Positions 1-44,367 of a stretch of 64,000 nt of DNA are shown piece by piece. The translations under genes were made by a program, and so were the position numbers. Position 1 is the stretch's first letter. Each line of letters starts with the position of its first letter. The notes under the pieces are model-generated. The model ran no database searches. It was not told the DNA's origin and was given only the letters and a program-made list of their open reading frames with translations. This DNA is from Squalus acanthias (taxonomy: Eukaryota): positions 310,001-374,000 of the forward strand of contig JASTWF010000171.1 in the NCBI GenBank assembly GCA_030390025.1, read 5' to 3'.

Positions 1-1036
1 CAGTCTAAAATTTAACCTTGGAGTCGTGGTTGCTATGGTGAAATCTTCCAAAGCAGTTTGATTTGATTTGTTTAAATGTGAAAAACTAATTTTTCTCCTG
101 TTATATTCAATGTTTTTACAGGATTTTGGAAAGGCATCTGAAGAAAGGACAATAAGAAATATGACGTAATTTAATGTTTTCTGCAGACATGTACTAGTTT
201 GTTTTGTTTTATCTGTTCTGTTCGTGTTTAGTTAAAGTGTGAAAACACAACTGTCTTTCGATCAGGAAAGTTTTTTTTAAATTTACGTGAAGTGACGCAA
301 TTGCGTGCGCCTGACAATGTTTCGCTCCACCTTCTTAAAAACCTGCAAAGGAGTTAACCCTTTCCACTGACAGCTGTTTAAGTTCATCAAGCAATAACTT
401 TAGAATTGCTGAATGAAATTTAAAGATATTGGACATTATTAAATTTAAGTTTCTTAATTCTAATTTAACATTTCCCAGAAGGAAAATTATGATTTGATAG
501 ATTAACCCCTTGGGCTTTAAGCAGAGTCACAATGGATTCTCTTCTTTCTTTTGTTATATGGAAGTTACCTTGTAAACTATTTGCAGCACTTCTGTCTCTA
601 ATGTTAAAACACTGTGTAAGCCACCTAGCCTGGAAATCACTTGTTTCTGAAATTGGAATTGATAAGATAAATTGATAGAAATGAAATTGAACATTGACTA
701 AACCTGTCAGTTCAACAGTACTGCTGTTTGGATTTCGGGATAATTTTGAAATGACAAAATGGACTCAGGCACTATATATTGGGTTACTTTTGAAAAAATA
801 AAAGATCCTCTAAAATAATGATAAATAAAAAAACGTCAATAACTTGGACCAAGTGAGAACGTTTGATCTATGTTTTCAATCTTAAAATACATATATCAAT
901 GATAGGGCTGTGTGTGATGTTAACCTTATACGTTGTGATTTGCATCTTCAAGTATGTCTGGAGACAGAGCCACAGACCAAGAAATGAACCAGATGTACAG
1001 CATTTTGAACTGATAGAACCGATAAGAGTGGAATAA

Positions 1037-1080
1037 TTCTAACTGGCTGGTGACGACCAGCCCCCTTTTTGTAATTACAG
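1037..1080 (+). promoter_or_regulatory. Candidate env splice acceptor
   Basis: Branch-point-like TTCTAAC near 1037, then CCCCCTTTTTGTAATTACAG ending at 1080, 18 nt upstream of the signal-peptide ATG. Confidence 0.55.
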
Positions 1081-1098
1081 GAACATTGGACGTCCAGA

Positions 1099-2977
1099 AT
1101 GAGGTGGAACGTTCTCGCCATGATCCTAGGGATGAACATAAGTATTGCCGTTGTCAAGGGGGTAGTGGTTAAGATGACCGCCAGGAAATCGGCACTAATC
1201 GCCAGAAGGGCGAATACTGGGCTATATCATAAAAGCTTGACGGACGTGGGCTGCGATCGAGAGCGCGGAGCGCTGACGGTCACTGTGGGGAAAACCATAT
1301 ATCTCAAATGTGGCGTGGGGGTACTAGAAGGGAGCACGAGGGGGATTAGTAATAAGGAAAACACAGGATGAGGTGTATTTTAAAGCAGCACATAGAATTA
1401 TTAAACTTGCTATCAATATGAGTACTTTTACTATGCCCGCGATGTGTAAGGATTATACCAAACGATTATGGGACTCCCTGTGGATGAAACAATTAGAGGG
1501 TCCACAAGGGAAATCTATCTTACAGAGACGTAAGAAATGGAGAGCATTGGAAATGGCCGGAGCAGGGTATGCGGCCGGGTTAGCAACAGTTAATAGTTTT
1601 GACATAGAAGGAGTAAGTGAAGGAGTAGAAGAACTACAAGCAAAAATAAAGAAGTTACTAAAACAAGCCACTGAAAATAGCCCACAAATGGCACTGGCAG
1701 TAGGACAAACGGCAAAACAATTGTTGGGGGTGGAAGAGATAGTAGCTCCCCATGCAAAAACAATTAAATATGATCAGATCAGCAATGCATCACACCAAAC
1801 CCATAAGGAATTGGCATGTGCCATGTATGGCTCATGGCTATTGTCGAATGCTCAGCATAACATGAAGCAAATAAATAATGGACAGATCCCTGATTGGATT
1901 ACTAATGAGGATCTGGAACCTTGGATTGACACAAATAAAAGCCTATGCAAAGGGCGTAAAATGGGACAAGTACACAGGGCAGGCAATTGTCTGACCCCAT
2001 GGACTAAGGTGATTGGCTTTGTACTGGCCATCCCACAACTCCCTGAAGGAGGACAGGCCCTATATGATGTGGGTAATATAGGAGAGGTACAAAGGGAGAG
2101 TTGGGTTAAATATCATGATGTCCCTACCAAGGCAATTTGGGAAAGGGATGAAGATAATCAGAAGAATGGAACCTTAAGGGGGGTGGTAATGGACGGGTGC
2201 CACCACAAGGGAAGGACATGGGTGTGCACACCCCCCCCCCCCCCCACCGAGGGAGACACAGCCGAGTGCGGATTTACGAAAACCACCAATTGCACCCTTG
2301 AGGTACACCCAAGGGGGATACGCCGAACAAGGGTAGCACCAGAGAACAACGGGACATTGTGTGTCACCACAGCTGAACAGAAATATGAATACCAAGACCT
2401 GACTTGTCCCATTCCCCAGCCAAACTTTTGTTTTTACCCAAAGATGCCTACACAGATAGGACACGAGTATATACACCCACCAAGACCACACGAAGAGAAA
2501 ACCTGGTCACTTAATAATACGGGACTTAATAGAATGATTAAAACATATGTCATACCGGAGCCCAAGGCAATTCCTAAGTTAAAGGAACAAGAAGCTTGGA
2601 AGAAATTACAGCGGGAAACGAAAGAAATTTTAAAGCATTATAATAGAATAGAAAAAGACTTAAAGCAACAAAGTAAAGACATTAGTAAAACCTTATCGGA
2701 AACCCCTTGGTGCAATAAGGTCTGGGACTGGGGACTCAATGTGAATGTACATCCATGGATCAGGATCATGTCACACGTGCTAGTGGTAGTTCAATTATCA
2801 CTATCAGTTTACCTTCTGATAGATTGTTGTAGCAAGTGTCGCGGACGAAAAATGAAAACCTTAGCGAAGAAAATAGCCAGAGGAGTAAGAAAGGAGGAAG
2901 AGAAAGAAAAACTGTTGCTAACCATCAATGAACTTGGGGGAGAACGTAAGGGGACTGTCTATGCAGCCTGTGTTTAG
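1099..2977 (+). CDS. env: Envelope/class I fusion glycoprotein, F-like (lokiretrovirus-type); about 625 aa once one frameshift in the G run at 1340-1344 is corrected
   Basis: ORF 1099-1371 starts with a signal peptide (MRWNVLAMILGMNISIAVVKG). Removing one G joins it to the 1373-2977 frame (..STRGLVIRKTQDEVYFK..). Then basic cleavage site RRKKWR, fusion peptide ALEMAGAGYAAGLATVNSFDIEGV, heptad repeat, Cys-rich region, second helix, TM segment (IMSHVLVVVQLSLSVYLLI) and a basic tail. Confidence 0.8.
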
Positions 2978-3110
2978 GATTGTCAGATTATGAGTACCAG
3001 ACACCCTGGGTTGGTACCACCAGGGCGACGGGAGCTTATATGAAACAATCTTAAGCTATAGAATACTGGCCTTATTGGGTCAATATGACCAATGGGCCAT
3101 AAAGGGGGAC

Positions 3111-3549
3111 TGAAGTAATTAAAATTTATAATTAATATCATTAAGTGTTAGACGTGAGCTTGTTAAGGAAAAAATTGTGAGCTTGTTAAGGAAAAATGTG
3201 CATTCAAAGTAACTTGAGCTCGTTACGAGAACAGGAACTGTTACCTTAAGAAAACATGTTACTAAACAAACCATCTGGTCCCAGAACCAACTGATAAAAG
3301 AAATGTGATTAATCGGGACGTTGATAGCTTCTCACCCGCCCCTAGGGCAAGGTATGATTTTTGTGTATAAGTATGAATGTCGCTAGGGTCTCAGGGAGTC
3401 GAATCTGAGAAGGGTCTCAGAAGGTTCTCCCCAAGCCCTCCCCGGGCCTGTGAAAATTAAATGATCGTTTTGAACCATCACTCGAAGTCTGTCATCTGTA
3501 CCCAACGAAGCATCGACCCTGTATATCACAGGGCCCGCTCCCACTTACA
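3111..3549 (+). repeat. 3' LTR (about 439 bp)
   Basis: Starts TG just after the PPT. Internal direct repeat GTGAGCTTGTTAAGGAAAAA x2 (~3153-3197), TATA-like GTATAAG (~3365), ATTAAA (~3456). Ends CTTACA where CR1 sequence begins. Confidence 0.7.
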
Positions 3550-4247
3550 TCAAATCACAAAAAGTTACCATGCAGGTACAGCAAGTAATTAGGAAGGCAA
3601 ATGGAGTGTTGGCATTTATTGCAAAGGGAATTGAGTATACAAGTAGGGAAGTCCTGTTACAACTGTACAGGGCATTGGTGAGATCACACCTGGAGTACTG
3701 CATACAGTTTTGGTCTCCTTATTTAAGGAAGGATATTACTTGCATTGGAGGCAGTTCAGAGAAGGTTCACGAGGTTGATTCCGGAGATGAAAGGGTTGTC
3801 TTATGAAGAAAGGTTGAACAGGTTATACAGGGCCTATACTCATTGGAGTTTAGAAGAATGAGAGGGGATCTTATTGAAACTTATAAGATACTGAAGAGGC
3901 TTGACAGGGTAGATGCAGAGAGAATGTTTCCCCTCGTGGGGGAATCTAGAATTAGGGGGCATAATTTCAGAATAAGTGGGCACCCATTTAAATCGGAAAT
4001 GAGGAGGAATTTCTTCTCTGAGGGTCGTGAATCTTTGGAATTCTCTTCCCCAGAGAGCTGTGGAGGCTGGGTCATTGAATATATTTAAGGTGGATAGACA
4101 GATTTTTGAATGGTAAGGGAGTCAAGGGTTATGGGGAGCGGGCAGGGAAGTGGAGTTGAGGCCAAGATCAGCCATGATCTTATTGAATGGCGGAGCAGGC
4201 TCGAGGGGCCAAATGACCTACTCCTGCTCCTACGTCTTATGTTCTTA
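3550..4247 (+). mobile_element. CR1 LINE 3' fragment (target of the LTR element)
   Basis: RT C-terminus (LYRALVRSHLEYCIQFWSPY, RRMRGDLIETYKI) and typical CR1 3' end ...CTCCTACGTCTTATGTTCTTA. Confidence 0.9.
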
Positions 4248-4470
4248 TCTAAAACCATGTTGACTCTGTCTAATCATATTATGAGTTTCTAAGTGCCCTG
4301 TTACCACTTCCTTAATAATGGATTCCAGCATTTTCCCGATGACTGATGTCAGGCTAACTGGCCTGCAGTTCCCTGTTTCCTCTCTCCCTTCTTTCTTGAA
4401 TAGCGGGGTTACATTTGCTACCTTCCAATCCGCCGAGACTGATGTAGAATATAGGGAATTTTGAAAGATA
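4248..4470 (-). mobile_element. CR1 LINE internal fragment
   Basis: Reverse complement encodes the NxRPVSLTSVIGKMLESII region of CR1 RT. Confidence 0.75.
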
Positions 4471-35300: not shown

Positions 35301-35968
35301 TGACTGTCGGTGTCTCGTCACTCACTGAGCGTTCCTTGTTTTACAGTGGGAGGGAAGAGCGGCTACAATCCTACAACCAGTAAGCTGATCATCAAACATC
35401 CTCTGCATCTCTGGAACACTGAATCGTTGCTCATTCTGTGTCTGATACACTGAACAGTTTATTACTCTGTGTCTCCCTCTGTCTGTCTGGCTCTCTGTCT
35501 CTGTCTCTCTCTCTCTCTCTCTGTGACTGTCTNNNNNNNNNNNNNNNNNNNNNNNNNNNNNNNNNNNNNNNNNNNNNNNNNNNNNNNNNNNNNNNNNNNN
35601 NNNNNNNNNNNNNNNNNNNNNNNNNNNNNNNNNNNNNNNNNNNNNNNNNNNNNNNNNNNNNNNNNNNNNNNNNNNNNNNNNNNNNNNNNNNNNNNNNNNN
35701 NNNNNNNNNNNNNNNNNNNNNNNNNNNNNNNNNNNNNNNNNNNNNNNNNNNNNNNNNNNNNNNNNTCTCTGTTTCTGGCTCTGTCTCTCACTCTGTGACT
35801 GGCTCTGTCTCTCTTTTTCTGGCTCTGTCTCCCTCCTTCTGTCTCTCTATTTCTCTCTGTCTCGCTCTCTCTCTCTCTATGACAATGAACAGTTTATTAA
35901 TGCCTGTCCTTCCATTAACAGCTTCTAATCAAGGGGAATCCTCCTGCAGCTCCTCCGCCAATGCCTGA
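17338..35968 (+). CDS. MHC class I heavy chain gene, shark UAA-related with non-classical features; join(17338-17386,28883-29143,30087-30359,30477-30740,34754-34858,35347-35379,35922-35968), 343 aa
   Basis: All introns GT-AG and phase 1; 1032-nt open frame with leader, alpha1, alpha2, alpha3 (C1-set Ig), TM and two cytoplasmic exons. Confidence 0.93.
17387..17808. repeat. 62-bp minisatellite whose unit begins at the exon 1 donor, about 6.5 units
   Basis: GTGAGTAATGGGGTGTGAGAGG... recurs at 17387, 17449, 17511 and onward. Confidence 0.95.
17882..18785 (-). mobile_element. CR1 LINE 3' fragment in MHC intron 1
   Basis: LYSLEYRRLRGNLIEVFK, FYTQRVVEIWN and CR1 tail on the reverse strand. Confidence 0.85.
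25146..25463 (-). mobile_element. HE1-type V-SINE inside the array
   Basis: Reverse strand tRNA head TGGCATAGTGGTTAGC, V-domain TGTGTGGAGTTTGCACATTCTCCCCGTGTCTGCGTGGGTTTCCTCCGG, ATTCTGTG tail. Confidence 0.85.
28259..28576 (-). mobile_element. HE1-type V-SINE, duplicate of 25146-25463
   Basis: Near-identical sequence and flanks, 3113 bp downstream. Confidence 0.85.
28883..29143 (+). CDS. MHC class I exon 2 (alpha1)
   Basis: GSHSLRYF...VGYVDEVQFVMYDSD...PREQWM..EGPESW...RTNQSG; AG/GT borders. Confidence 0.96.
29364..29792 (-). mobile_element. CR1 3' tail plus HE1-type SINE in MHC intron 2
   Basis: (CATAGAAA)n CR1 tail at 29364 and a V-SINE at ~29490-29792. Confidence 0.8.
30087..30359 (+). 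CDS. MHC class I exon 3 (alpha2)
   Basis: IHTYQVMIGCDL...QFGWDGRDLISFD...YLEVECIEWLRKYL; conserved Cys pair. Confidence 0.96.
30477..30740 (+). CDS. MHC class I exon 4 (alpha3, C1-set Ig)
   Basis: LFCVVTGFYP.IEVTLW...LPNHDSTYQ...YSCQVEHSGL. Confidence 0.96.
30769..31326. repeat. 45-bp minisatellite, about 12 units
   Basis: GGGACAGACCCACAGGAGGGAGGGTCAGTGCTGAGCTCCCAGCCC repeated. Confidence 0.95.
31408..34712. repeat. 27-bp minisatellite CCTGGGATATTACGGTCCACGGTGGAT, about 122 units, very homogeneous
   Basis: Direct reading; variants occur in blocks. Confidence 0.97.
34754..34858 (+). CDS. MHC class I exon 5 (connecting peptide and TM)
   Basis: VPKSESMVPAIVGVIGVLGLLIALSIVAVVIYRKK after (CT)nCAG; ends AAG|GTAGGA. 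Confidence 0.92.
35040..35265. repeat. G-rich short-period repeat (GGGGCTCTGGGTGAGG-like)
   Basis: Direct reading. Confidence 0.8.
35347..35379 (+). CDS. MHC class I exon 6 (cytoplasmic, Tyr motif)
   Basis: 33-bp exon VGGKSGYNPTT between TTACAG and GTAAGC. Confidence 0.85.
35922..35968 (+). CDS. MHC class I exon 7 (Ser-rich tail and stop)
   Basis: TSNQGESSCSSSANA* followed by G|GTATGA donor. Confidence 0.8.
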
Positions 35969-43483: not shown

Positions 43484-44367
43484 NNNNNNNNNNNNNNNNN
43501 NNNNNNNNNNNNNNNNNNNNNNNNNNNNNNNNNNNNNNNNNNNNNNNNNNNNNNNNNNNNNNNNNNNNNNNNNNNNNNNNNNNNNNNNNNNNNNNNNNNN
43601 NNNNNNNNNNNNNNNNNNNNNNNNNNNNNNNNNNNNNNNNNNNNNNNNNNNNNNNNNNNNNNNNNNNNNNNNNNNNNNNNNNNNNNNNNNNNNNNNNNNN
43701 NNNNNNNNNNNNNNNNNNNNNNNNNNNNNNNNNNNNNNNNNNNNNNNNNNNNNNNNNNNNNNNNNNNNNNNNNNNNNNNNNNNNNNNNNNNNNNNNNNNN
43801 NNNNNNNNNNNNNNNNNNNNNNNNNNNNNNNNNNNNNNNNNNNNNNNNNNNNNNNNNNNNNNNNNNNNNNNNNNNNNNNNNNNNNNNNNNNNNNNNNNNN
43901 NNNNNNNNNNNNNNNNNNNNNNNNNNNNNNNNNNNNNNNNNNNNNNNNNNNNNNNNNNNNNNNNNNNNNNNNNNNNNNNNNNNCCGAGCAGGTAACTCCC
44001 CTCACCCGAGCAGGTAACTCCTCTCACCCGAGCAGGTAACTCCACTCACCCGAGCGGGTAACTCCTCTCACCCGAGCAGGTAACTCCTCTCACCCGAGTG
44101 GGTAACTCTACTCACCCAAGCAGGTAACTCCACTCACCCGAGCAGGTAACTCCACTCACCCGAGCAAGTAACTCCTCTCACCCGAGCAGGTAACTCCTCT
44201 CACACAAGCAGGTAACTCCTCTCACCCGAGCAGGTAACGCCTCTCACCTGAGCGGGTAACTCCTCTCACCCGAGCAGGTAACTCCACTCACCCGAAACTC
44301 CACTCACCCGAAACTCCACTCACCCGAGCGGGTAACTCCAATCACCTGAGCAGGTAACTCCACTAAC

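Follow-up and report, generated by a model that had tools for sequence, protein, structure and literature searches.

A dead endogenous retrovirus of the shark Squalus acanthias with an envelope protein predicted to be of the F type

Which retroviral lineage left an envelope gene near the start of this 64,000-nucleotide stretch of Squalus acanthias DNA (hereafter the window), and can an envelope that resembles paramyxovirus F identify that lineage? An earlier note, made from the letters alone, had proposed a lokiretrovirus or a related element in a cartilaginous fish. We arrive at a different placement. The stretch very probably holds the rear part, from env through the polypurine tract to the 3' LTR, of one dead, internally deleted copy of a multi-copy endogenous retrovirus (ERV), whose reverse transcriptase (RT) lies near SnRV and the epsilon- and gammaretroviruses and whose Env is predicted to be of the F type. 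A cartilaginous-fish host is probable, the closest named Env homologues being those of sharks. SnRV-like shark ERVs are not new, this lineage having been known in outline since 2015 (PMC4422223, in its available portion), and the locus itself is a fossil. The main value lies at the level of the family: its many shark copies yield a profile deep enough to connect paramyxovirus F with the Envs, so far unclassified, of SnRV and WDSV/WEHV.

The window copy and its duplicates

The gene lies in two overlapping plus-strand frames of different register (1075-1371 and 1328-2977 in the list of open reading frames), and the single protein of about 625 residues that had been described is thus an env-like gene in two pieces. 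The N-terminal piece (1099..1327, + strand) begins with the ATG of env at 1099, followed by a hydrophobic, signal-peptide-like leader and the start of a head domain; it is out of register with the core. The core is a 549-residue open frame (1328..2977, + strand) with F2-like strands and helix, a basic cluster (1526-1543) and, directly behind it, the small-residue, fusion-peptide-like segment AGAGYAAGLATVNSFDIEGV (about 1544-1606). These are followed by HRA, Cys-rich beta domains, HRB, a transmembrane segment (about 2765-2821, near residues 480-498) and a tail. Sixteen cysteines, seven N-glycosylation sequons and a heptad region were counted in this frame, which has no CX6CC motif. The earlier note had thus correctly picked out the leader, the fusion-peptide-like segment, the heptad region, the Cys-rich segment, the transmembrane segment, the lack of CX6CC and the purine tract followed by an LTR.

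Its early basic cleavage site stands only in part: the basic cluster is there, but in the window copy it is missing the canonical R-x-K/R-R furin motif, which 29 of 37 loci examined do carry (two places are counted twice, and many loci are segmental duplicates). A cleavage position some 150 residues into about 625 is correct as arithmetic but reflects a lost head and stalk, since in long-frame relatives the position is residue 276 of 729 and residue 327 of 784. DNA homology of the window copy to sister families begins exactly at 1326-1328, and this copy lacks the rest of the head as well as the Cys-Pro motif and the Thr/Pro stalk found ahead of the core in the sisters; the short N-terminal part is therefore best read as a deletion. 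The small size of the N-terminal subunit, relative to a large C-terminal one, is accordingly in part an effect of this deletion, although an F2/F1-type core is indeed predicted. A poly-C run at about 2230-2246 differs in length among copies and breaks the frame in many of them, through slippage or long-read error.

Upstream of env lies a pre-env segment (887..1080, + strand), 82% identical to the full-length sister L199, which ends in a polypyrimidine tract and a TACAG splice acceptor (1061-1080). It is preceded by an AT-rich internal segment of the deleted provirus (1..886, + strand) that extends upstream past the start of the window by about 1,450 nt and contains, in its upstream part, a degraded RT remnant. 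Homology to sister copies reaches equally far, and the element does not start at 1037 as had been thought. The AT-rich segment (window 1-886; L231-L236) recurs in LTR elements that have unrelated LTRs and are without this env, and the internal region is hence probably a recombinant mosaic. Downstream of env, the polypurine tract (3101..3109, + strand) is followed by a C and then by the LTR, as in the sister copies. The 3' LTR had been recognised, with an end at 3549; it measures 442 bp and ends at 3552 (3111..3552, + strand; TGAAGTAA...TTACATCA), with TG...CA termini and a 7/8 terminal inverted repeat. The host flank behind it is a LINE fragment (3553..4250, + strand), presumably of CR1 type, common to three segmental duplicates of the window insertion. 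Neither a second, 5' LTR nor a gag-pol frame was found in the 20 kb upstream of the window copy, where LINE pieces and 22-bp arrays lie, and an LTR search of this contig gave three LTRs, all of them 3', among the best 40 of 193 candidates scored. The matching 5' LTR that the note had hoped to find upstream is present only in sister copies, as part of LTR pairs. The rest of the window (12748-64000) consists of long tandem arrays (19, 22, 27, 45 and 62 bp) and LINE fragments, with N runs at 35533-35765 and 43484-43983.

Is the feature a chance assembly of motifs? All 40 candidates scored (the best 40 of 226) match the window element at 86-100% DNA identity and two-LTR copies exist, which argues against chance. 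Among the 20 best loci only 6 distinct 3' flanks occur, the window's own flank in four and another in twelve, so that most are segmental duplicates. The window insertion was multiplied four times by segmental duplication together with 22-bp arrays; another insertion was multiplied at least twelve times with 36-bp arrays (C26 8.2-11.9 Mb; C812; C3328). The two-LTR sister elements have LTR pairs that are 97.3-99.3% identical, and five separate insertions among them are flanked by target duplications of 5 bp. In three more distant elements of which both ends were read, the target duplication is 5 bp in one and 4 bp in two. Together with gag-pol in sister copies, the paired LTRs and target duplications bear out the identification as an LTR retroelement. 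The divergence of the sister LTR pairs corresponds to roughly 15-50 million years at the rate in the accessible part of PMC4422223, a rate which is its author's guess. Judged by their 3' flanks, L005 and L020 are separate insertions that struck a LINE RT sequence (TATATTAATGA) at almost the same place, possibly by target preference or by chance.

The window copy is dead: its 5' LTR is lost, its head truncated, its frame broken and its furin motif absent. No Env with both a signal peptide and a membrane anchor can be made from it. The state of its subfamily is similar, with the frame broken between head and core in 17 of 19 loci and further down in the other two, and with most of gag-pol replaced by about 2.8 kb common to LTR elements that have unrelated LTRs. 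We propose that the env head and most of gag-pol were lost from the subfamily, that it was likely copied in trans by an intact helper, and that its inserted copies were multiplied later by segmental duplication. No RNA record of the stretch is listed; contigs of four runs span it and are uninformative on expression. Long open env frames persist in two distant members beside degraded or deleted pol (L093:1189-3540, 784 codons; L073:632-2818, 729 codons). Three database proteins (P0175, P0184 and P0170) join a piece of env to host domains (F-box, cadherin), probably by gene-model read-through and possibly by exonisation.

Placement of the polymerase

Pol was read not from the window copy but from sister copies with an Env core 83-89% identical to it, in a group of elements that recombine. 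These sisters encode gag with zf-CCHC, protease, RT, tether, RNase H and integrase, the tether and RNase H in the order PF17919/PF17917, then PF00075. A dual RNase H of this kind is, to our knowledge, common to all retroviruses. The RT motifs of the family are WTRxPQGFHNSP and LQYVDD, as in the SnRV RT printed in the supplement of PMC7947760, which is available to us in part; the Loki-Str motif given there is RCPFGYANSP. The Loki-type motif is absent from the family, and the exact Loki pattern has 0 matches in the Squalus acanthias genome, a search that worn copies could escape.

The RNase H region of the family matches MLV/XMRV structures at about 110 bits, and the best foamy stretches stop near residue 486. 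For the RT core alone, foamy scores 144, MLV 129 and Ty3 80 bits. Viral contigs scanned with a single Pol gave no match; scanned with the family RT alignment they gave one locus, L135, which carries the SnRV motifs and is read as SnRV on that ground, as L193 is read as WDSV by the same comparison. RT-region identity is 42.8% to L135, 40.1% to a gamma row, 36.5% to L193, 34-36% to foamy viruses and 27-38% to gypsy-type elements.

Does a tree settle the position? Our RT tree has 44 rows and 410 columns, the rows hand-chosen from 99 proteins and about 30 loci, without lokiretrovirus, ERV-L/ERV-S or class II rows; the foamy rows are tentatively labelled as such from a motif and from the size of Env. 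Together with sequences from sharks and minnow, the family makes up a clade of 7 rows (96/94); this clade belongs to a larger retroviral one (99/96) that also contains the foamy, SnRV and class I rows. The class I clades of 13 and 16 rows (100/99 each) do not include the family, which is at most their sister, as it is in the best tree (90/97, a branch that is not starred), with SnRV just outside. A grouping of the family with SnRV is not rejected (AU p 0.29). The family RT also lies outside the foamy clade, and the shark Gag has a zinc knuckle, unlike the Gag of spumaretroviruses, which is without one. The primer site is identical to that of the elephant-shark CmiERV on scaffold 2, a lineage I element that clusters with SnRV (Han 2015, PMC4422223); lineage I thus resembles the family as a chondrichthyan ERV with the same tRNA-Ser primer site, and its Env is not characterised in the portion of that paper available. 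The SnRV-related clade has been named Huo, with class III ERVs included (PMC6001957, likewise a partial source).

Two other placements have to be weighed against a position near SnRV and the epsilon- and gammaretroviruses. A lokiretrovirus of cartilaginous fish, the identity first proposed, is extremely improbable. As described in the accessible text of PMC7947760, lokiretroviruses do resemble the family in an F-like Env, a tether plus RNase H and a gag-pol-env order between LTRs, yet an F-like Env is not diagnostic of them. The sister-copy RT is nested inside ordinary retroviruses and is without the Loki motif, the RNase H aligns with MLV and not with foamy viruses, and the Loki Envs in that supplement have their core about 30 residues after the start, whereas the shark Env has a large variable head. 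At least five chondrichthyan assemblies were screened in the same study and, in the part at hand, lokiretroviruses are reported from none, although two of these assemblies hold homologues of our Env; the shark element leaves that record unchanged. More credible, though still the less favoured view, is a basal class I, epsilon-related retrovirus that inherited its F-type Env along with WDSV/WEHV and does not belong to the SnRV clade. The best tree speaks for it, as do an Env profile nearer WDSV than SnRV and the rank of WEHV-1 and WDSV Env as best retroviral structural matches. Against it, pairwise RT identity is nearer SnRV, the primer site is common to the SnRV-clustering CmiERV-I, and the sister branch is the unstarred one with the AU result given above. 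Should this placement be correct, the mechanism would be unchanged and only the label would differ.

The predicted Env fold and its relatives

A full HMMER scan with Env yielded 38 homologues, whereas word-index searches with Env and with its alignment yielded none. Ten homologues were looked up: seven come from sharks (five species), two from frogs, and one is unnamed. Further, more distant env families are also present in the Squalus acanthias genome. The window frame alone has no Pfam or PDB sequence match, PF00523 is touched by only 6 of 84 family members and below its cut-off, and the ESM Atlas offered, as a lead only, Fusion_gly and Baculo_F clusters at 0.94 with low recognition. Designed coiled coils, the top PDB profile matches of Env, were discounted.

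AlphaFold2 on the 84-row alignment gave a model with a mean pLDDT of 71.8 and a pTM of 0.50, in which residues 70-151 fall below pLDDT 50; from the single sequence, pLDDT was only 37.7. Among the matches listed by Foldseek against the PDB there are only paramyxo/pneumovirus F or foamy Env (best E 4.9e-9), with low TM-scores to solved F of 0.25-0.37. An independent aligner (VIA) placed the same families in its top 14 rows, with a best Z of 10.9 at an rmsd of 12.4 over 309 aligned residues, and unrelated helices at Z 6.3 and below. Among predicted viral structures, lispi/arlivirus glycoproteins came out on top, baculovirus F was also matched, and the best retroviral matches were the Envs of WEHV-1 (E 1e-11) and WDSV (E 5.7e-9). 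The prediction for Env is thus a fusion protein of the F type (class Ib), with an F2/F1 core and beta-rich domains between HRA and HRB, in agreement with the F-type envelope first suggested. As judged from sequence features and the model, it would form a trimer that is primed by proteolysis and fuses membranes. The predicted fold and the order of elements are those of paramyxo/pneumovirus F; the shark Env differs in identity (8-14%), in its extra N-terminal head and in having no separate attachment gene.

Is this envelope peculiar to sharks? The family Env profile aligns with L193 (WDSV) Env over 447 columns, reaching the transmembrane segment (HHalign 97%, E 2.4e-11), and with L135 (SnRV) Env over 284 columns (94%, E 1.3e-7). 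These alignments take in the Cys-Pro junction, the furin site, the Cys that precedes the inner helix and the Cys-rich strands late in the protein. Shuffle controls (60 and 40) reached maximum scores of 27.6 and 21.5, against real scores of 57 and 90; in HHalign, reversed-sequence controls gave 0.2-0.3%, six CX6CC gamma Envs at most 2.5%, and six foamy Envs 1-41%. SnRV has the nearest named RT and a colinear Env core from the head-core Cys-Pro junction through the Cys-rich region, but it has an unrelated head of about 520 residues and accessory frames of its own, and it is not the sister in the best tree. WDSV/WEHV-1 resemble the family in the Env core alignment, the structural matches and the RNase H type, and differ in the more distant RT, in a larger head and tail of their own, and in cyclin accessory genes, none of which was seen in the shark copies read. 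In the Squalus acanthias genome, another env family with this fold (L115-L131; P0157, P0020, P0064) goes with a different and deeper Pol clade, which includes frog and coelacanth proteins and lies outside the foamy, SnRV and class I group; the fold is thus not confined to one branch. The alignment with two known fish retroviruses suggests that among aquatic retroviruses this entry machine is both old and common. A link between F and the Envs of fish retroviruses may already be present in Calcraft 2024 (Cell).

The premise that lokiretroviruses are the vertebrate lineage with an F-like Env is outdated. Such an Env has been published for lokiretroviruses (PMC7947760), but an F-related Env has also been published for foamy viruses (PMC11468914), and the SnRV and WDSV Envs align with the family. 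Epsilonretroviral Env has been described as neither gamma- nor beta-type, or as not modellable (10.1101/2021.11.23.469661, 10.1101/2021.11.05.467493). In the available portions of the literature covered, which includes PMC12583693, PMC13709493, PMC11521997, PMC12193657 and PMC5512871 and excludes Calcraft 2024/PMC9972966, SnRV-type or epsilon Env is nowhere called F-type; the foamy and lokiretroviral papers, too, are partial sources.

How, then, did the shark element come by this gene? That a single lineage of shark ERVs recently took up an F gene from a negative-strand RNA virus would agree with the lispivirus/arlivirus glycoproteins at the top of the predicted-structure matches. We regard such a capture as unlikely: identity to these glycoproteins is only 11-14%, and homologous Envs occur on at least two deep Pol clades in the same genome, in several sharks, in frogs, and on SnRV and WDSV. 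The suggestion that the 549-residue frame is a co-opted host gene draws on its remaining open for 549 codons and is highly improbable, as the frame has no in-frame signal peptide and no furin motif and is broken in each of three near-identical duplicates. A further reading, which we hold to be slightly less likely than not, is that the F-type (class Ib) Env is the ancestral retroviral fusogen and that the gamma/beta-type Env of familiar retroviruses is a later replacement. On this reading the F-type Env occurs in foamy viruses and lokiretroviruses, in epsilon and SnRV-related retroviruses, and in a wide radiation of shark and amphibian ERVs, in which exchangeable N-terminal heads (Cys-rich, Ig-like or other) would be swapped on a conserved core. 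Should four deep branches of retroviruses indeed share F-type Env, a single structure-guided phylogeny could test where retroviral env came from, and an F-like Env would no longer be a lokiretrovirus marker.

Heads and provirus layout in sister copies

Between the window head and those of two sisters, whose cores are 83% and 89% identical to the window core, no similarity is detectable, but over 42 residues the window head is 60% identical to the head of a family with a core only 34% identical. The heads of the two sisters have only the 14-residue end of the stalk in common. Unrelated heads on a core of 83-89% identity suggest that heads were probably swapped, most simply by exchange at the stalk. 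An Ig-like head is indicated in some homologues, either by the annotation of the source or by a weak V-set match; Pfam gave no family for six heads and V-set (E 0.045) for one homologue only, and the ESM Atlas gave no match for the one head submitted. F has been viewed as a minimal scaffold that takes receptor modules (PMC11468914, in its available part), and by analogy the shark head may bind a receptor. Foamy Env as described there likewise combines a class Ib core with an added receptor module and matches the shark Env weakly in profile and structure; its RBD, however, is inserted between the subunits, whereas the shark head is N-terminal. Head swaps would offer a natural series for the addition of receptor modules to a minimal fusogen.

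Over 20 nt, the primer site of the best sister copies corresponds exactly to the 3' end of a tRNA-Ser(AGA) gene of the host with CCA added, and 5 of 5 sister copies checked have a splice donor, GGGTGAGT, 58 nt behind that site. Env is thus likely to be made from a spliced RNA, the donor being joined, as these signals suggest, to the acceptor at 1061-1080. In an intact element, tRNA-Ser would prime reverse transcription, env would be expressed from the spliced RNA, and furin would cut Env into an N-terminal subunit (variable head, Thr/Pro stalk and F2-like part) and a C-terminal, F1-like subunit. The head would likely bind the receptor and the core refold to a six-helix bundle, so that attachment and fusion would be carried out by one protein, as in foamy Env and coronavirus spike. 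At L214 (C889), tRNA Ser-Leu-Asp gene triplets form a tandem array with a 1.7-kb period.
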